From sequence record NC_101835.1: a stretch of 64,000 bases of DNA; one strand, written 5' to 3'. A program made the translations under genes and the position numbers. The notes below the pieces were generated by a model that worked only from the letters and a program-made list of their open reading frames with translations, was not told the DNA's origin and searched no databases. This stretch comes from a phage. Positions 8,991-30,607 of this stretch are shown here, in pieces (the first letter of the stretch is position 1; each line of letters opens with the position of its first letter).

Positions 8991-9077
8991 TGGTGGGGAG
9001 TGGTGGAGTCGAACCACCCGAGTCGCAATGACAATAGATTTACAGTCTACACCGCTACCTCTACGGGATAACTCCCC
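8991..9077 (-). tRNA. tRNA-Tyr (anticodon GTA), type II
   Basis: 87 nt, acceptor GGGGAGT/ACTCCCC, anticodon loop CTGTAAA, long variable arm, T-arm GTGG-TTCGACT-CCAC, encoded CCA. Confidence 0.75.
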
Positions 9078-9081
9078 AATT

Positions 9082-9156
9082 TGGCACCCCGTACTGGACT
9101 CGAACCAGTGTCAACGGCTTAGAAGGCCGCTGCTTTATCCACTAAGCTAACAGGGC
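9082..9156 (-). tRNA. tRNA-Arg (anticodon TCT)
   Basis: 75 nt, acceptor GCCCTGT/ACGGGGT (two G-U), D-arm GCTT-AGTGGATA-AAGC, anticodon loop CTTCTAA, T-arm ACTGG-TTCGAGT-CCAGT, encoded CCA. Confidence 0.75.
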
Positions 9157-15187: not shown

Positions 15188-15901
15188 ATGCTAAATACTA
15201 AACTGATCGACAACCTGGAAAAACTGTCTCAGCCTGAAAACTACCTTTGGTCTGCCAACTGGGTGGAAAACTGGAACCGTGTGGCAGCTAAAGTGAAAAA
15301 ATCATACACACCATTCGAATTACAGCTTAGCTTCATTGAGGAAGAGTTCAATGAGGTTTTGGAAGAGCTGGAGAAAGGTGATGGTGGAGATCACCTGCTA
15401 AAAGAGGCCTGCGATCTTCACGTTGTCACAAGTTATGCAGCTTATCTCGTTAATGACAATCACGAAAAGTGGTCAAACCTGTTTGATAATCCACGAGGTC
15501 TTAAGTTCAAGATCGGTGAGTTCTATGATACACTGATCGCTGCGAAAAACACATCCAAGCAAAGAGCGTCAGCTTACCGCTTAGCGGAGTTGTCAACAGC
15601 TTTGCTGTTCCAGCTTCGCGGCGATGTGTGCGGGATGATGCGTAAGGTTCTCAAATCTAATGACAGCAAGTTTGCACGGGTAAACCATCTACGGTATTCA
15701 CACGGTGCCAGTGCAGATATGCCTGCTGAACAACTCATAGAGTTGGAGATTAAAGATCTTGAGCGACGCTTTGATGGTCGCTACGAAGGTTTTGTTGCTA
15801 AGGAAGAGTTCTACAACGGTAATAAAGTTATCATATTCCTTGACAGTAAAGGTAAGATCATGAAGCCTTCGAGCTTCAAGGATGTAACAGAGTATATTTG
15901 A
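15188..15901 (+). CDS. MazG-like nucleotide pyrophosphohydrolase domain protein (tentative)
   Basis: EExxE...ExxD pattern (FIEEEFNEVLEELEKGD...KEACD). Confidence 0.35.
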   Translation: MLNTKLIDNLEKLSQPENYLWSANWVENWNRVAAKVKKSYTPFELQLSFIEEEFNEVLEELEKGDGGDHLLKEACDLHVVTSYAAYLVNDNHEKWSNLFDNPRGLKFKIGEFYDTLIAAKNTSKQRASAYRLAELSTALLFQLRGDVCGMMRKVLKSNDSKFARVNHLRYSHGASADMPAEQLIELEIKDLERRFDGRYEGFVAKEEFYNGNKVIIFLDSKGKIMKPSSFKDVTEYI

Positions 15902-15963
15902 CAACATAGCCGGGTAATCCCGGCTTTACTTATTATGGAAAGTATGCAGCGAGGTAGTTAGTT

Positions 15964-16272
15964 ATGTACAAGCATTCCAGAAATCTTGAAAAAGATGCTG
16001 TGTTTGGCGACCAGATGAAGGAGCTGATCAAACTTATAGGTAGAATGGAAGATAAGTTTGACACTAAAATCTACATCGATAGCAAGATCTTCAACCACAA
16101 AATATGGACAAATGTGTGTGTTGGGCTACATGGTGATAAAGATATTGTAAATTTGGTTGTAATAAAGTTCATAGTGTGGCAGAATAAGACTATACGTTAT
16201 TCCGATCCACACTTACTTGTTTATCCTATAAAAGACCTACTACAGAAGGAGGACTGCAATGCCGTTATTTAA
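15964..16272 (+). CDS. hypothetical protein (102 aa)
   Basis: ORF in co-directional gene block. Confidence 0.35.
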   Translation: MYKHSRNLEKDAVFGDQMKELIKLIGRMEDKFDTKIYIDSKIFNHKIWTNVCVGLHGDKDIVNLVVIKFIVWQNKTIRYSDPHLLVYPIKDLLQKEDCNAVI

Positions 16273-16528
16273 TCTTGCTAAACCTGTAGAAGCCCACCAG
16301 TTTGACGGAAGCTCTTCATCAGTATCTGATCTGCAACGGTGGATTGATACAGGTGTGTTTACATCGTCACCTGTTCGGACCAGAGATCTTCGTCGCATGT
16401 GTGAGCTTGTCGAGCCTTTTGGTAACCTTGTCCTGTACCAGGGAGATTGGCTAGTTGACTTTATGGGAGACTGGTTGGTAATGAGTAAAGAAGAGATGTT
16501 TAAAATTTTTAAGGAAGAGGCCGAGTAA
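16259..16528 (+). CDS. hypothetical protein (89 aa)
   Basis: ORF in co-directional gene block. Confidence 0.35.
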   Translation: MPLFNLAKPVEAHQFDGSSSSVSDLQRWIDTGVFTSSPVRTRDLRRMCELVEPFGNLVLYQGDWLVDFMGDWLVMSKEEMFKIFKEEAE

Positions 16529-24904: not shown

Positions 24905-25108
24905 TTGGAGACCGCAATGACACTAAAGTTAACAATTCCAGACAGCTTTTCAGAAAACTTTATCCCAGAAATGATGGGTAAGATGCGATCATTGCTTGAT
25001 CAGATTGAGGAAGCTGTTTGGGAAGACGATGCTGTAGTGGCTAACGAGCTGGTAGATAAGTGTAAAAGTATTATTGATGCAGTTGAAGAATACCACGGAG
25101 GTTTTTGA
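24905..25108 (+). CDS. hypothetical protein (67 aa, acidic)
   Basis: GGAG RBS. Confidence 0.3.
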   Translation: METAMTLKLTIPDSFSENFIPEMMGKMRSLLDQIEEAVWEDDAVVANELVDKCKSIIDAVEEYHGGF

Positions 25109-25722
25109 TGGATATTATTGTTCTTAACGCCCCACCCAGCAGTGGTAAGGATCACATTGCAGATCTCTTGTTGGAAGCTATTCCTAACTCACACCACCGT
25201 GAGGTTAAGGAGATGCTCTTCAGTGTGGCAATTAAGGGAGCTGGCGTAACTCCTCAACTCTGGAATGCACTTTATGACCGCCACTACAAAGAAGAGCCTT
25301 GCCCTTTCTTAATGATAGACGGCAAGCATGTTTCTCCGCGAGAATGGATGATCCATTGTAGTGAAAATCTGATTAAACCTATCTTTGGTGAAGATGCTTT
25401 CGGTAAAGCCGCAGTCGCATCTTTGAAGAAAGATTTCCCTAAAGGTAAAGGGGTTGTTGTTTACTCCGATGGTGGATTCAAAGAGGAGCTGGCATGCCTT
25501 AGCGAGTACGCGTACAGCACAGGTGGAGATCTGTTGTTGTTCCGTATTCACCGTGTCGGATATGACTGGGGAAATGATTCCAGAACCTATCTAAGTCTGG
25601 AAAAGAACGGAATAAAAGGAATTGAGTTCGATGTTGTAAACCCTGAAGGTGCACCTTGGGAATGTGCATCGGAGATTGTGTGCAAGTATATTGATGCTAA
25701 AGAGGCCCAAGAAGAATGTTAA
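25105..25722 (+). CDS. P-loop kinase, possibly dNMP kinase
   Basis: Walker A NAPPSSGKD (cf. T4 gp1 RSGKD). Confidence 0.35.
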   Translation: MMDIIVLNAPPSSGKDHIADLLLEAIPNSHHREVKEMLFSVAIKGAGVTPQLWNALYDRHYKEEPCPFLMIDGKHVSPREWMIHCSENLIKPIFGEDAFGKAAVASLKKDFPKGKGVVVYSDGGFKEELACLSEYAYSTGGDLLLFRIHRVGYDWGNDSRTYLSLEKNGIKGIEFDVVNPEGAPWECASEIVCKYIDAKEAQEEC

Positions 25723-26309
25723 TCGGTATTGATGTAGATTTGACACTGGTAGATTCAGGAACAGCATGGTGGGAGTGGTTGGAGCGTTTATATGGTCCAG
25801 CCAGTAAGACAGTCGCTAAACCTTCTAATGGGCTGATGTATTACGATCTGTCAAAGTATTGGCCTGATCGCCCCAAAGAAAACATCATAGGACCTTTTGA
25901 TTTCTGGAGTGACCCGTTCCTCTACGACTTTCTTAAGCCCGAAGAGGGGGCTATTGAGGTTATGAAAGATTTGGTGGCTCGTGGTCACAAGCTTGCATTT
26001 ATCTCGGTATGCAAGAAAGGTCACCTTGCATCTAAATCAAGGTTCTTAAAGCGTTGGACCAGTGATTTTATGGATCTGGACGATCACACCCAGGGTCACG
26101 GCTTCTACGCCACACATTTCAAAGGAAATGTGGCTGTAGATGTTATAATTGACGACAGGCATGAATACCTGAACCAATTCGCTTCACGACCTGAAGTTAT
26201 TAAAATCCTAAAAGATACGCCTTATGAGCAATTCGAGGAGTTAAAGGTCAGTGTTGACTATACCGCTAACAGCTGGTATAAAATAGGAAAGTTTTTAGAA
26301 GGTATTTGA
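25716..26309 (+). CDS. HAD-superfamily hydrolase (putative nucleotidase)
   Basis: N-terminal GIDVDLTL (DxDxT) and downstream IIDD. Confidence 0.45.
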   Translation: MLIGIDVDLTLVDSGTAWWEWLERLYGPASKTVAKPSNGLMYYDLSKYWPDRPKENIIGPFDFWSDPFLYDFLKPEEGAIEVMKDLVARGHKLAFISVCKKGHLASKSRFLKRWTSDFMDLDDHTQGHGFYATHFKGNVAVDVIIDDRHEYLNQFASRPEVIKILKDTPYEQFEELKVSVDYTANSWYKIGKFLEGI

Positions 26310-26310
26310 A

Positions 26311-26511
26311 ATGGGCAGATGTTCTAAAGGTGGCGATCCTGTAGTCAGATACGGTGACTGGCTAGAGGTGTATGATCTGGGAGGTAAGCTGGTGTATGCC
26401 TCCAGGATCACCCAAGACATGTGCTCCGATATGTTCAACAGATACCTTGCATTTAAGGCCAACATAAACCCAGACGAAATTTCCAAAATTAAAACAAGGA
26501 GAGCTAAATAA
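26311..26511 (+). CDS. hypothetical protein (66 aa)
   Basis: ORF, translationally coupled. Confidence 0.3.
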   Translation: MGRCSKGGDPVVRYGDWLEVYDLGGKLVYASRITQDMCSDMFNRYLAFKANINPDEISKIKTRRAK

Positions 26512-27494
26512 TGCTAAAACTGTGCACTGCAAAGATCATTGCTGACAGCATTTCCGAGAAAGGTAAGCGCATCACAACTTTTGAGCTAGAGTATCCTCGA
26601 ATTATTCACTCAGAGCTTATGACGCATCGAGTATTCAGCCGAAACGCCATGTCTTCCCGTGCAGTTCCTGTCGGCAAGATGCTGCAACAGATTGTGGAGA
26701 ATCCGGCAATGCCAGTTCGCTTCGGTGCAAATAAGCGAGGGATGGAAGATGGTGGGGAACACGATCAAAAGATCCGTGTAGAGTACACTGACATGGAGTT
26801 AACTCCTGAAGAATTTTGGAAAGAAGCTGCAAAAAACGCCGCTTGGCATGCAGAGAAGTTCGCCCTTGCTGGTTACCATAAGCAAGTATGTAACCGCTTA
26901 GTGGAGCCTTTTCAACGCATGAAAACAGTTGTAACAAGCACCGAGTGGAATAATTTTTTCCACCTCCGTTGCTGGCACGATGCGGATCCTACGATTCAGA
27001 TGTTGGCTAATTGTATGTGGGAGGCTCTTGGGAATAGCACTCCTGAAATCCTTAAACCGGGTCAATGGCACACCCCATATGTAGAGCACGTTTATTTGGA
27101 CGGAGAGTTTAACTACGCTGTGCGTGACACAGAAGGAAAGCTCTGCATTCTCGATACTAAAGAAGCTCTGTCTATCAGTGCTAGTTGCTGTGCACAAGTA
27201 TCTTATCGAAATATTGACAGCACGTTTGAAAAGGCAGACAGTGTGGCTAAAAAATTGATTGGTGGGGATCGTATTCATGCAAGCCCTTACGAGCACCAGG
27301 CAACACCTATGGATCACGATAACGCAATGGAACGTTTAAACTACTACCTGTCTTCATGTGAAATCACACAAGACATCAGTACTTGGCAGGAAGGTGTAAC
27401 CCATCAAGACCGTGATGGTAAATTCTGGTCTGCCAACTTTTGTGGGTGGGTTCAGCACAGACAACTGCTTAATAACCACTTCGTGAAAGGTTAA
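26511..27494 (+). CDS. thyX: ThyX-family protein (flavin-dependent thymidylate synthase-like, variant motif)
   Basis: ELMTHRVFSRNAMSSRA aligns to ThyX signature RHRxxSxNxxSxRY with R-to-T and Y-to-A changes. Confidence 0.55.
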   Translation: MLKLCTAKIIADSISEKGKRITTFELEYPRIIHSELMTHRVFSRNAMSSRAVPVGKMLQQIVENPAMPVRFGANKRGMEDGGEHDQKIRVEYTDMELTPEEFWKEAAKNAAWHAEKFALAGYHKQVCNRLVEPFQRMKTVVTSTEWNNFFHLRCWHDADPTIQMLANCMWEALGNSTPEILKPGQWHTPYVEHVYLDGEFNYAVRDTEGKLCILDTKEALSISASCCAQVSYRNIDSTFEKADSVAKKLIGGDRIHASPYEHQATPMDHDNAMERLNYYLSSCEITQDISTWQEGVTHQDRDGKFWSANFCGWVQHRQLLNNHFVKG

Positions 27495-27523
27495 TCCTAT
27501 CACAGCGATAGGTAACTTTTGTG

Positions 27524-27552
27524 TTGACTAATAGTATCAGATAATCTATAAT
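27524..27552 (+). promoter_or_regulatory. sigma70-like promoter
   Basis: TTGACT-N17-TATAAT. Confidence 0.45.
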
Positions 27553-27592
27553 AATGGCTCACTTTGTTAGTGAGCCAGAAATGGAGACAGAT

Positions 27593-28054
27593 ATGAGTAA
27601 TGTTATGATTCCTAAAAAGACATTTATTTCAGTTACTTTGGATTTCCTATCTACCGTTCCCGGGTTTAACGTTCGCACACGAAACGGTCTCCGAGCTGCA
27701 CTCTTTGCCGTAGGGTTTGATTTAAAAAGTATTGATGTTCTTCGTGGAAAAAACGTTCGATGCAAAAATAAGCCAACACATTATCGAAAGGCAGATGTAT
27801 TTGCTGGTGTCATGCGTGCAGACTTTAGATACCCGCAAATGTATAACGGTGTAGATATTTTAGATGTGGATAAAGCACCTGGTGAGGCAATGCTTGTTCA
27901 AGATCTCCCGTATGATATCCCAGTAGAGGATCGTGTTAATGTAAGAAAGTATACAAAACAATCTGAAAAGGCTGAAGATATTCATATTGTTGATGAACCT
28001 TTCAATTTTGAAGATCTGCATCGCCTGGAAAAATTATTCGGTATTGAAAGCTAA
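27593..28054 (+). CDS. hypothetical protein (153 aa)
   Basis: ORF-track start at 27554 lies inside the promoter; ATG at 27593 has GGAGA RBS. Confidence 0.4.
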   Translation: MSNVMIPKKTFISVTLDFLSTVPGFNVRTRNGLRAALFAVGFDLKSIDVLRGKNVRCKNKPTHYRKADVFAGVMRADFRYPQMYNGVDILDVDKAPGEAMLVQDLPYDIPVEDRVNVRKYTKQSEKAEDIHIVDEPFNFEDLHRLEKLFGIES

Positions 28055-28064
28055 GGTGGTGAAG

Positions 28065-28295
28065 ATGAGCCATAACTCCAAGTGGAAGGATCTTGGTTTT
28101 GCAAGTCGGGCAGAATATGTTGGTTGGCTTTGGTTCAACGGCCTGACAAACGATATTAAAATGTATGATGATGTTTATTATGACGAGTATACAGGTAAAA
28201 TTATAAATATCTCTGTAGAAGAGGATACCTTTATCCAGCAAGATACTGATACCTGCCTTGATAAATACGTTAATGAAGTGGAGGAAGCAAATTGA
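28065..28295 (+). CDS. hypothetical protein (76 aa)
   Basis: ATG with AAGGTGG RBS. Confidence 0.35.
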   Translation: MSHNSKWKDLGFASRAEYVGWLWFNGLTNDIKMYDDVYYDEYTGKIINISVEEDTFIQQDTDTCLDKYVNEVEEAN

Positions 28296-30607
28296 TCACC
28301 AAGGTAATTAAAAGCAACGGATGTGAAGCGGCATTCGACCCAGAACGTTTAAATAAGGCAGCTATTTTCGGTGACGACGGTAACGGAAATTGGTCACATA
28401 TTGCACTGGATGCATACAAACGACTGTATGATGGATGTACGACCAAAGAAGTTAACCAAGCTATCATAGACTCCTGTGTTAGCCGTAAAGACGAAGCACA
28501 TTCCCGTATGGCTGGTCGTGTTCTTATTGGTCAGATTTATAAAGAGGCTTTTGGAGGGTTTACAAAGATCCCTTCCTTACCATCATTTTACAACGACATG
28601 GTTGAGAAAGGGTATTGGGAGGATATGGGTTATAGCTTTACCGAGTTAAACACTTTAGGCACTGTTATTGATCACAGTAAAGATCTCGGTTATGGCTATG
28701 CAGTCCTTAAACAGTTTCGCGACAAATACGGGATCAAGGATACTCTTAAAGACACCCTGTTTGAATCTCCCCAGATGATGTTTATGGGGATAGCAATGGC
28801 TGTCATGAAGAATATGCCGAAAGAACGTCGTATCAACGATGTTGTAAAATTATACACTTATCTGTCCGACTTAAAGATCAATGCCCCGACACCGTACTTA
28901 AACGGGCTGCGCACAGGTAAGACAGGGTATGCATCTTGTTGTGTAATAAAAGCTGACGATACAGCAAAATCTATTGGTGTGGCACGTGAAGTTGCGTACA
29001 CAATGACGGTTAACCAGGCAGGTATCGGCTACTATTTATCCTCAAGATCTGCAGGCGATGGTGTTCGTGGTAACACTATTAAACATATGGGTAAGATTCC
29101 ATATTATCGAGGTATTGATGCTGGGGTTAAGGAGAACAGACAACAATCACGTGGCGGTTCTGCAACAGTATCATTCCTTGCACTGGATCCGCAGATTGAT
29201 GAGCTAATCCGTTTGAGAAACCCTATGACTGTTGCTTCAAAAAGAATCAACACCATGGACTACTCTATAGGTATTAATAGGTCGTTTATCAACCGTGTGG
29301 CTAAGAATTTAGATTGGATGCTTGTTTCTTATAAGCACGCGCCTCAACTGCATGAAGGTATCTTCACCATGTCTATGGAGGAGTTTGATGCAGAGGTTGA
29401 TCGTATCGCTAAAGATGACAGTATTCCTAAAACATGGATCCGAGCTAGAGATCTTGCTGTTGAACTGCTCACGCAGCGTATTGAGGTTGGAAGGCTGTTT
29501 GTATACTGGACAGACGAGATGAATAGACATACACCTTTTAAAGATGTGATCTATTCAAGTAACCTGTGTGCAGAAATAGCCCTCCCGACAAAAGGCTATT
29601 CAGATATGCGTAATATCTTCAAGCACGATGTTGATGATGGCGAAGTTGCATTGTGCTTCCTGTCATCACTTGTAGCTGGAAGGGTTACCCCAGAGGAGTA
29701 TGAGGATGTTGCATACTACACGGTGCTTATGATTGACAATGTTATGGAAATCATGACATATCCGTATGAAAATATGGAGAGTACTGTTAAAAAACGCAGA
29801 TCCATCGGGGTTGGCCTTACCAATGTTGCACATTTTATTGCCAGCCACAAGGTTACTTACGGATCTCCTGAAAGTAAACAGCTTGTTCACGATCTTGCAG
29901 AACTTCACAGCTACAGCTTGCATAAGGCAAGTTTACGGTTGGCAAAAGAGCGTGGTGTCTGCGAGTGGATGCATAAAACAAAATATCCAGAAGGTTGGTT
30001 ACCAATCGACACCTATAACAAAGAGGTCGATAGCGTGGTGAAAGATCCTTCTCTTAAACAGGATTGGGAAGGGTTACGTAAAGAAATCGTTGAAAATGGT
30101 GGGCTACGTAATAGCGTTCTTGAAGCATATATGCCTAATGAAAGCTCTTCGCTGGCAACAAACACCACTAACGGGGTTTATCCTGTCCGTGAGCACATTA
30201 TCTTTAAAAAGTCGCCACAAGGGCAGGTGCTGTTTATCGTTCCTGACTATGATGAGTTGAAAGAGTACTACACTTCGGCTTGGGACGTTGATACTAACGA
30301 CATGATCGATATGTATGCTGTGATTCAAAAATTCACAGGTCAGGCAATCAGCGCGGATTTGTACATAGACTACACCAAGTTGAAAGATGGTAAAATTTCA
30401 ATGAAGGAGCAGCTAGGGTACCTTATCCGTGCCACTAAATTCGGAATGAAGACATGGTATTATTTAAACTCTAGGGTTGGTGCTGGTGACTCCTTGGCAG
30501 AGGAACTTCATGCCAAGAAACAGGCTGAAGATGAAACCAGAAAGAACTATCCTTTGACTGCAGATAGTTCAGTTGAAGATCAGTATTGCGAAAGTTGTGC
30601 ACTATAA
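28292..30607 (+). CDS. nrdA: ribonucleotide reductase class Ia alpha subunit
   Basis: 771 aa; ATP-cone N-terminus; PTPYLNGLRT, SNLCAEIALPT, C-terminal CESCAL as in E. coli NrdA. Confidence 0.9.
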   Translation: MITKVIKSNGCEAAFDPERLNKAAIFGDDGNGNWSHIALDAYKRLYDGCTTKEVNQAIIDSCVSRKDEAHSRMAGRVLIGQIYKEAFGGFTKIPSLPSFYNDMVEKGYWEDMGYSFTELNTLGTVIDHSKDLGYGYAVLKQFRDKYGIKDTLKDTLFESPQMMFMGIAMAVMKNMPKERRINDVVKLYTYLSDLKINAPTPYLNGLRTGKTGYASCCVIKADDTAKSIGVAREVAYTMTVNQAGIGYYLSSRSAGDGVRGNTIKHMGKIPYYRGIDAGVKENRQQSRGGSATVSFLALDPQIDELIRLRNPMTVASKRINTMDYSIGINRSFINRVAKNLDWMLVSYKHAPQLHEGIFTMSMEEFDAEVDRIAKDDSIPKTWIRARDLAVELLTQRIEVGRLFVYWTDEMNRHTPFKDVIYSSNLCAEIALPTKGYSDMRNIFKHDVDDGEVALCFLSSLVAGRVTPEEYEDVAYYTVLMIDNVMEIMTYPYENMESTVKKRRSIGVGLTNVAHFIASHKVTYGSPESKQLVHDLAELHSYSLHKASLRLAKERGVCEWMHKTKYPEGWLPIDTYNKEVDSVVKDPSLKQDWEGLRKEIVENGGLRNSVLEAYMPNESSSLATNTTNGVYPVREHIIFKKSPQGQVLFIVPDYDELKEYYTSAWDVDTNDMIDMYAVIQKFTGQAISADLYIDYTKLKDGKISMKEQLGYLIRATKFGMKTWYYLNSRVGAGDSLAEELHAKKQAEDETRKNYPLTADSSVEDQYCESCAL

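Follow-up and report, generated by a model that had tools for sequence, protein, structure and literature searches.

Flavin-dependent thymidylate synthase (ThyX) is an antibacterial drug target whose mechanism is debated; Tyr91 has been proposed to serve as both general acid and gatekeeper and Arg78 as a stabilizer of the reduced flavin. In the enzyme of Thermotoga maritima (Tm), R78 stabilizes the reduced flavin and faces N1/C2=O of FADH- (reduced flavin adenine dinucleotide, FAD), mutants of Y91 show ~1000-fold slower flavin oxidation, S30 is hydrogen-bonded to flavin C4=O, and H53 stacks on folate or flavin, coming from a subunit other than the one which binds deoxyuridine monophosphate (dUMP) (PMC11940539). 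We analyzed a ThyX-like gene in a window of 64,000 nucleotides (the whole stretch of DNA that was studied) from phage sequence record NC_101835.1. Our analyses suggest, with a probability of roughly two in three, that this gene encodes a working flavin-dependent thymidylate synthase, which converts dUMP to thymidine monophosphate (dTMP) and belongs to a phage-specific, topologically rearranged ThyX clade. The open reading frame (ORF; 327 amino acids (aa), with the stop codon included in the coordinates, Table 1) is present exactly as given in a preliminary description of this DNA, which had described it as a ThyX-family protein with a variant signature motif, the first Arg and the final Tyr being substituted.

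Residues 38–51 of the protein read THRVFSRNAMSSRA, as compared with RHRxxSxNxxSxRY in canonical ThyX. In hhalign comparisons, they fell column for column on R78-H79-R80-I-A-S83-Y-N85-E-L-S88-G-R90-Y91 of the T. maritima enzyme, and it is this register which identifies the changes as first Arg to Thr (T38) and Tyr to Ala (A51), in agreement with the preliminary description. The RHR-X7-S spacing is unchanged (THR-X7-S...RA); with its one mismatch, the protein would still pass the filter of Stern et al. ("2 or fewer deviations"), but it does not match the strict RHR-X7-S and RHRxxSxNxxSxRY signatures, and both substitutions are clade-wide. Conservation was counted in 136 relatives with 40–98% identity. 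Position 38 was Thr in 131 of these, Lys in three and Arg in two, whereas A51 was found in all 136, as were H39 (equivalent to Tm H79) and R50 (R90); S48 (S88) was present in 135 and N45 (N85) in 128. When 270 homologues were scanned with a regular expression, 227 fit the strict spacing, and T...A occurred in 225 of the latter and the terminal Tyr in none; the residue following the signature His was mostly Arg, with K, N, G, C or Q also occurring. In 120 canonical ThyX sequences, the R78 column was Arg without exception and the Y91 column was Tyr in 118 and Phe in two. The substitutions are a family trait and not a matter of chance or of a strain mutation. The premise that canonical enzymes end the signature with Tyr holds for nearly all of them, but not universally, since a Phe occupies this position in the PDB chain of Corynebacterium glutamicum ThyX (3ge9). 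Equivalents of Tm R74 and E86 are absent from the phage clade, along with those of R78 and Y91.

A bigger anomaly than the signature, and one that the preliminary description did not contain, is formed by a relocated module and a C-terminal half of ~150 residues. The protein family was compared by hhalign with T. maritima ThyX, with four characterized ThyX and with 120 mostly actinobacterial canonical ThyX. Its core, comprising strand 3, the active-site helix and loop, the long helices and the ARxxLP and LR..AQxEI motifs, aligned to canonical ThyX with a probability of 96–97% (96.7% with the four sequences; E-values of 3.9e-10 and 1.6e-9 for the family profile against the four and the 120 sequences, respectively). 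With T. maritima ThyX, two matches were obtained that abut on the template, i.e., residues 21–178 of the phage protein with Tm 61–199, and residues 221–263 with Tm 20–60. The canonical N-terminal module is missing at the N-terminus and was detected after the core, so that a segment normally located between strands 2 and 3 appears, in these alignments, to lie behind the core. Within this segment S231 corresponds to S30, H256 to H53, S258 to T55, E261 to E58 and H262 to H59. E-values for the relocated module ranged from 6e-5 to 1e-3 over the template sets (1.4e-4; 6.3e-5 for the C-terminal half alone; 1.2e-4 with the 120 sequences), and the deeper profile of 120 ThyX gave no better statistics than the four-sequence profile. 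As a control, the real score of 32.8 was compared with 40 column shuffles of the C-terminal half (maximum 19.4) and with the reversed template (11.6). Because the module acts in trans in the canonical enzyme, it is plausible that it could be relocated without functional loss.

Two other regions set the clade apart. A family-specific insertion of 35 residues, which appears as a template gap in hhalign and as short strands in an AlphaFold2 model, contains the invariant pair G77-M78 and near-invariant P68 and G72; further clade-specific invariant residues are H187, P189 and R317. The C-terminal half was modeled as beta-hairpins followed by a conserved tail, and this tail weakly resembles Tm 155–173 (strand 4 and helix 6; E-values of 3.8e-4 to 9e-3, probability 4–36%), a homology that we consider uncertain. 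Taken with the module match, the weak tail match suggests that the C-terminal half may be a remnant of a second ThyX repeat; when the N-terminal and C-terminal halves of the family were compared with each other by hhalign, no internal repeat was found (E-value of 0.2). We also considered the C-terminal QHRQ as a second RHR motif, but this was unsupported, as hhalign instead paired the tail weakly with Tm 155–173. The orthologue in Escherichia phage vB_EcoM-ECP26 appears in its annotation as a pair of shorter proteins (245 and 97 aa; BFVD A0A4Y5TVX3 and A0A4Y5TVY4), which are 95–96% identical to the window protein; the split occurs just before the relocated HxSPxEH module and is probably a frameshift or a sequencing error.

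The assignment to a divergent branch of the ThyX family, as proposed in the preliminary description, was supported by several searches. The Pfam Thy1 profile (PF02511) matched above its gathering threshold (37.1 bits versus a cut-off of 24.8, E-value of 3.8e-9), with the match limited to residues 23–178 and to profile positions 60–190 of 191; the C-terminal half alone had no match in Pfam. The protein also matched PHROG 85, "thymidylate synthase" (E-value of 3e-112). A phmmer search of PDB sequences with the window protein gave no match, and a search of PDB with a profile of the family alignment found ThyX at an E-value of ~1 only; by sequence alone, the clade is barely linked to solved structures. 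An AlphaFold2 model built from 32 homologues (predicted local distance difference test score, pLDDT, of 82.9; predicted template modeling score, pTM, of 0.82) was searched with Foldseek, and the predicted alpha/beta fold matched ThyX alone. The window protein had no match to the Thymidylat_synt family, i.e., the ThyA fold with its PCH catalytic cysteine.

Equivalents of residues that contact the substrate and cofactors in the canonical enzyme are retained. In addition to those of the signature, R153 (Tm R174, which contacts uracil O4/N3) was present in all 136 relatives and R129 (R147) and N148 (N169) in 135 each; in the relocated module, S231 and H256 were found in 136, H262 in 135 and E261 in 132. 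The window protein thus carries counterparts of the dUMP-binding S88, R90, R147 and R174, and the putative flavin/folate residues (S231, H256 and E261) are conserved, on the C-terminal and not the N-terminal side of the core. Approximately 40 positions are conserved at 90% or more across members that are just 40–50% identical, and these are mostly in substrate and cofactor motifs. The kept equivalents of S88, R90, R147, R174, H79, N85 and N169 therefore favor a uracil mononucleotide as the substrate and flavin/folate chemistry. A changed substrate, which the preliminary description had raised, found no support, since S48, R50, R129 and R153, as well as S231, H256 and E261, vary little or not at all and the neighboring genes serve ordinary deoxynucleoside triphosphate (dNTP) supply. 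A flavin- and folate-dependent methylase acting on a different uracil, either uridine monophosphate (UMP) as in PolB or a uracil of tRNA or DNA in the manner of TrmFO, might have used the 150-residue C-terminal half and the 35-residue insertion as a new substrate-binding surface. We regard such an enzyme as very improbable: the mononucleotide phosphate-clamp residues are invariant, no nucleic-acid-binding domain was matched in Pfam, and the neighbors are deoxynucleotide-pool enzymes in every lineage examined.

Homologues were detected by tblastn in 1,035 phage records, including those of Vequintavirinae and their relatives, ICP1, Pakpunavirus, G7C-like N4 phages, phiCbK-like Caulobacter phages, and Cellulophaga and Flavobacterium phages. 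When 1.84 billion representatives were searched exhaustively with phmmer, 5,043 clusters (at 50% identity) matched with an E-value of 1e-3 or lower and 2,001 with 1e-30 or lower; the clade is essentially phage-borne. Seventeen relatives of 520–680 aa (P0126, P0132, P0138, P0142, P0154, P0155, P0162, P0179, P0197, P0212, P0213, P0215, P0220, P0229, P0246, P0250 and P0270) proved to be single gene copies split by inteins with Intein_splicing, HNH or LAGLIDADG domains. Tandem duplication, considered because these proteins had two hidden Markov model matches, was ruled out by domain coordinates and Pfam. In the numbering of the window protein, which itself has no intein, the junctions are H33|S34, R40|V41, F42|S43, S48|S49, H156|D157 and H256|A257, the last of them in six relatives. 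There are at least six intein sites, all within three conserved motifs that include the relocated HxSPxEH loop. Inteins typically reside in active centers of replication and nucleotide-metabolism enzymes (PMC5050341). Together, the conservation, the intein sites and the ~5,000 clusters form a pattern that enzymes constrained by catalysis typically show. Neither the relocated His53/Ser30 module nor the disappearance of two hallmark residues across the clade appears in the literature that we searched, which did not cover subscription-only papers; the same applies to the intein sites as a set, among them the site in the relocated loop.

Table 1. Positions in the window of the ThyX-like gene, its segments and neighboring features (dNMP, deoxynucleoside monophosphate; HAD, haloacid dehalogenase)
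Feature	Position	Strand	Residues	Remarks
dNMP kinase	25105..25722	+		PHROG 139 (E 3.6e-44); so annotated in JLBYU08; first gene of the module
HAD-type 5'(3')-deoxyribonucleotidase (NT5C-like)	25716..26309	+		Pfam NT5C (E 4.4e-6; 27.1 bits vs cut-off of 24.8)
66-aa ORF	26311..26511	+		PHROG 4903 (E 5.6e-35), no named function; stop overlaps ThyX-like start
ThyX-like gene	26511..27494	+	327 aa	Phage "TH..SSRA" clade of putative flavin-dependent thymidylate synthases
Core region	26568..27056	+	20–182	Homologous to T. maritima ThyX residues 60–203
Variant signature THRVFSRNAMSSRA	26622..26663	+	38–51	T38 for Tm R78, A51 for Tm Y91; H39, N45, S48, R50 retained
Family-specific insertion	26700..26804	+	64–98	Between active-site loop and long helix; no canonical counterpart
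NRLVEP and FFHLRCWHDADPTIQ	26895..26999	+		R129 = Tm R147; N148 = N169, R153 = R174; by hhalign, equivalents of dUMP phosphate- and uracil-binding arginines
Relocated module SISASCCAQVSYR...HASPYEHQ	27171..27299	+	221–263	Equals Tm 20–60 (helices 1–2 and HxSPxEH loop) by alignment
C-terminal tail RDGKFWSANFCGWVQHRQL	27411..27467	+	301–319	N309, Q315 and R317 near-invariant or invariant
Terminator-like hairpin	27496-27512	+		Pattern match only
Promoter-like site	27524-27552	+		11/12 consensus bases; pattern match only
166-aa ORF	27554-28054	+		No Pfam/NCBIfam match; PHROG 5557, no assigned function
Class I ribonucleotide reductase alpha subunit (NrdA)	28292..30607	+		Pfam Ribonuc_red_lgC (E 8.8e-101); JLBYU08 annotation

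The ThyX-like gene closes a tightly packed group of four cistrons, the first three being those of a dNMP kinase (overlapping the next gene by 7 nt), an NT5C-like nucleotidase and a 66-aa ORF. The start codon of the ThyX-like gene and the TAA stop codon of the 66-aa ORF overlap in the sequence TAATG, and a ribosome-binding site, AAGGAG, is located ~10 nt 5' of the start codon; the 66-aa product, translationally coupled through TAATG, is a possible small partner or regulator. The terminator-like hairpin with its T-rich run begins 2 nt past the stop codon, and in the promoter-like site (TTGACT, a 17-nt spacer and TATAAT) the -10 hexamer is separated by 2 nt from the start codon (ATG) of the following ORF. 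The transcription unit probably ends in this region and, if the promoter-like site is real, the next ORF would have a leaderless or very short-leader transcript. This 166-aa ORF, a "putative thymidylate synthase" in JLBYU08, was considered as a partner subunit and rejected, as it had no Pfam or NCBIfam match. An ORF following the homologue in Pseudomonas phage K5 (K5 gp101, L006 6956-7300) is labeled likewise; it is unrelated to the window ORF and also had no family match. Because the two ORFs are unrelated to each other and lack family matches, both labels appear to be annotation noise that was probably propagated. Beyond NrdA, relatives carry NrdB, glutaredoxin and NrdD/G (JLBYU08 annotation).

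The 4-kb region around the gene is 98.5–98.8% identical to many Vequintavirus (rV5-like) Escherichia coli phages, and the first 25 kb of the window show the same similarity; because of this near-identity, we consider the window to be part of a lytic myovirus genome of ~137 kb. Escherichia phage CarlMeissner (Vequintavirus, 98.7% identical to the window over the 4-kb region) was used as the complete relative. Approximately 20 unannotated GenBank records of "Campylobacter phage" with Campylobacter jejuni as the host (including MG065658, MG065661, MG065682, MG065635, MG065653, MG065654 and MG065666) are 96–99% identical to the rV5-like sequence of the window, likely as a result of mislabeling or coliphage contamination. 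Six tRNA genes (Met, Thr, Ser, Tyr, Arg) are also clustered in the window at 8432-9156 on the minus strand, and one of them, a 99-nt tRNA-like gene (8589-8687), was assigned a four-base anticodon (atcc) by ARAGORN. The corresponding tRNA cluster of CarlMeissner contains, by annotation, a 97-nt tRNA-Lys.

A similar setting was seen in other phages. The homologue is located near nrdA in ICP1, beside ribonucleotide reductase in K5 and PaP1, and near a dCTP (deoxycytidine triphosphate) deaminase gene in ECBP1, and in CcrSwift it is flanked by dNMP kinase and by NrdAB plus dUTPase (deoxyuridine triphosphatase). We scanned 80 IMG/VR viral loci by local tblastn within 10 kb of the ThyX-like gene; 28 loci had NrdA, 27 an NT5C-like gene and 17 a dNMP kinase. 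ThyA was found at one locus, and canonical ThyX and FolA were found within this distance in none. In the window and CarlMeissner, tblastn detected no counterpart of E. coli ThyA, FolA or Dut or of T. maritima ThyX (the best ThyA E-value was 1.8), and the CarlMeissner annotation lists no second thymidylate synthase, dihydrofolate reductase (DHFR), dUTPase or deoxycytidine monophosphate (dCMP) deaminase. The absence of DHFR fits ThyX chemistry. The one locus with ThyA, IMGVR_UViG_3300028615_000018 (L056), has a ThyA-family ORF at 15681-16310 on the plus strand, which lacks the first ~86 profile positions. Its PCH cysteine and uracil-specifying Asn are present, and the position of E. coli D169 is occupied by Gly; the ORF may represent a copy in decay or one split by an intron. 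In the same contig, a MazG-like gene is located directly upstream of the ThyX-like gene.

The preliminary description had also suggested changed chemistry, with pyrimidine hypermodification as an example. It is conceivable that a ThyX-fold enzyme with altered chemistry makes 5-hydroxymethyl-dUMP via a hydrated exocyclic methylene intermediate, or methylates dCMP, and so feeds modified phage DNA. In this regard, R78 and Y91, which are tied to the reduced flavin and methylene transfer, are replaced clade-wide, the co-packed 5'-deoxynucleotidase (27 of the 80 loci) and dNMP kinase could serve to remove dTMP and to phosphorylate dNMPs that carry a modification, a ThyX-fold enzyme with another substrate range exists (PolB, 4p5a), and one viral contig combines the ThyX-like gene with an N-terminally truncated ThyA-like gene. 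However, we consider this scenario unlikely. The uracil-recognizing R153 and all phosphate contacts are invariant, and the clade is spread over unrelated, well-studied groups (ICP1, Pakpunavirus, G7C-like and phiCbK-like phages), none of which is known to have a modified thymidine, although no search was aimed at this point. CarlMeissner has neither dUTPase nor ThyA by tblastn and, by annotation only, no hypermodification genes (a hydroxymethylase with a DNA kinase or transferase). Vequintavirinae were described as "exceptionally susceptible" to type I–III restriction-modification, apparently without effective protection (BASEL study, PMC8594841), although such sensitivity does not strictly rule out 5-hydroxymethyldeoxyuridine. 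Known pathways of thymidine hypermodification begin with a ThyA-family hydroxymethylase and not with ThyX (PMC8989533). In addition, phage PaP1 encodes a family member, gp110, that shares its motifs and 49% of its residues with the window protein; gp110 is highly expressed, and ordinary thymidine is significantly increased in infected cells (PMC5377924). That thymidine, and not dTMP, was increased could be accounted for by the NT5C-like nucleotidase. Hypermodification is therefore unsupported by these data. More generally, it is improbable that the missing Arg78 and Tyr91 and the rearranged site reflect a changed reaction outcome, be it the release of 5-hydroxymethyl-dUMP or another C5-substituted pyrimidine or a reaction that draws on other donors of one-carbon units or electrons.

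Several observations weigh against a working dUMP-to-dTMP enzyme. A 5'-deoxynucleotidase and a dNMP kinase beside a thymidylate synthase-like gene are also carried by thymidine-replacing phages of the SPO1/PBS2 type. The two residues lost clade-wide matter in the model enzyme, and the NCBIfam equivalog for thyX (TIGR02170) was missed, with 38.2 bits versus a cut-off of 87.9. Structural similarity is modest (Foldseek TM-scores of 0.38–0.56 on the target), the model is least certain in the motif loop (pLDDT of 58–69), and the hhalign probability of the relocated module is 21–65%. The spatial placement of this module and the identity of the compensating residues are what we infer from sequence. 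The increase of thymidine with PaP1 is correlative, and enzymology, complementation or a structure for the clade was not found in the literature searched, subscription-only papers being outside its scope. It is possible to read the lost catalytic residues, the failed equivalog threshold and the moderate fold match as signs of a dead or repurposed ThyX relic, such as a regulator that binds a nucleotide or flavin, an enzyme with NAD(P)H oxidase activity only, or a scaffold of the phage's dNTP-synthesizing complex, with dTMP coming from the host; E. coli has its own ThyA. We find such a relic quite improbable, because the ~40 highly conserved positions lie in substrate and cofactor motifs, inteins hit exactly those motifs, and ~5,000 clusters at 50% identity are kept in lytic phages.

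We therefore favor a functional, rearranged ThyX, for which we infer FAD binding, dUMP and folate as substrates and dTMP as the product, with an active site that would be shared between subunits of a presumed oligomer as in the canonical enzyme. Such an enzyme would use FAD, a reduced pyridine nucleotide and methylene-tetrahydrofolate and release tetrahydrofolate and, because tetrahydrofolate is released, no phage DHFR would be needed. The module that provides the flavin C4=O serine and the folate- or flavin-stacking histidine would have moved behind the catalytic core, and Arg78 and Tyr91 would have been given up clade-wide, their roles being presumably assumed by other residues, with R30, R44 (or Lys), H187 and R317 as candidates. 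Expressed as the last cistron beside ribonucleotide reductases, the gene would boost the supply of thymidine triphosphate during replication.

A clade that lacks Arg78 and Tyr91 and has an apparently moved His53/Ser30 module is a natural experiment that can tell which residues flavin-mediated methylene transfer requires, and it bears on how much rearrangement is tolerated when subunits share an active site. The gene is already annotated in more than 1,000 genomes, and the rearranged variant should be useful both to those who study the ThyX mechanism and for annotation, as the label "thymidylate synthase" on these phage genomes reflects a partial homology that fails a curated equivalog test. 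The phages concerned include therapy candidates (rV5-like phages and Pakpunavirus) and the model phage ICP1. The intein sites, at least six in number, mark functional hot spots and provide intein research with new insertion alleles. If the protein is simply a working thymidylate synthase, the interest is a specialist one, and phage biology is unlikely to be overturned unless the product is not dTMP. If, on the other hand, the improbable change in reaction outcome were true, thousands of phages would encode, under the label "thymidylate synthase", a flavoenzyme of a new kind that modifies nucleotides, and the adjacent 5'-deoxynucleotidase and dNMP kinase would form a pool-editing module with it.

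Among known systems, PolB of Streptomyces cacaoi (PDB 4p5a/4p5b), a ThyX-fold UMP/dUMP methylase, was represented among the top structural matches by 4p5a. PolB has the canonical topology and a strong sequence match to T. maritima ThyX (E-value of 3.8e-34) and belongs to an antibiotic biosynthesis cluster, whereas the phage protein is rearranged and encoded in a dNTP module; in sequence, it is no closer to PolB than to other ThyX. The ThyA-family dUMP/dCMP hydroxymethylases of phages (SPO1, ViI, M6 and T4 gp42) are likewise pyrimidine C5 one-carbon transferases encoded beside nucleotide kinases, but they have an unrelated fold, a cysteine nucleophile and dedicated downstream DNA kinases or transferases (PMC8989533). 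Mycobacteriophage ThyX-like genes also are phage thymidylate synthase genes with inteins at conserved sites (PMC5050341), a feature shared by the present clade; their proteins, labeled as ThyX-like thymidylate synthases, appeared among the BFVD structural matches, but weakly (Foldseek E-value of 0.056). With canonical ThyX (T. maritima TM0449, Mycobacterium tuberculosis Rv2754c and PBCV-1 A674R), the phage protein shares 13–18% identity, the RHR-X7-S spacing, the equivalents of H79, N85, S88, R90, R147, N169 and R174 and, by alignment of the relocated module, those of S30, H53, E58 and H59, and a gene location beside ribonucleotide reductase without a DHFR partner. It differs in its length (327 aa versus ~220–250 aa), in having Thr for R78 and Ala for Y91, in the displaced position of the helix 1–2/His53 module, and in the presence of a 35-residue insertion and a C-terminal half of ~150 residues.

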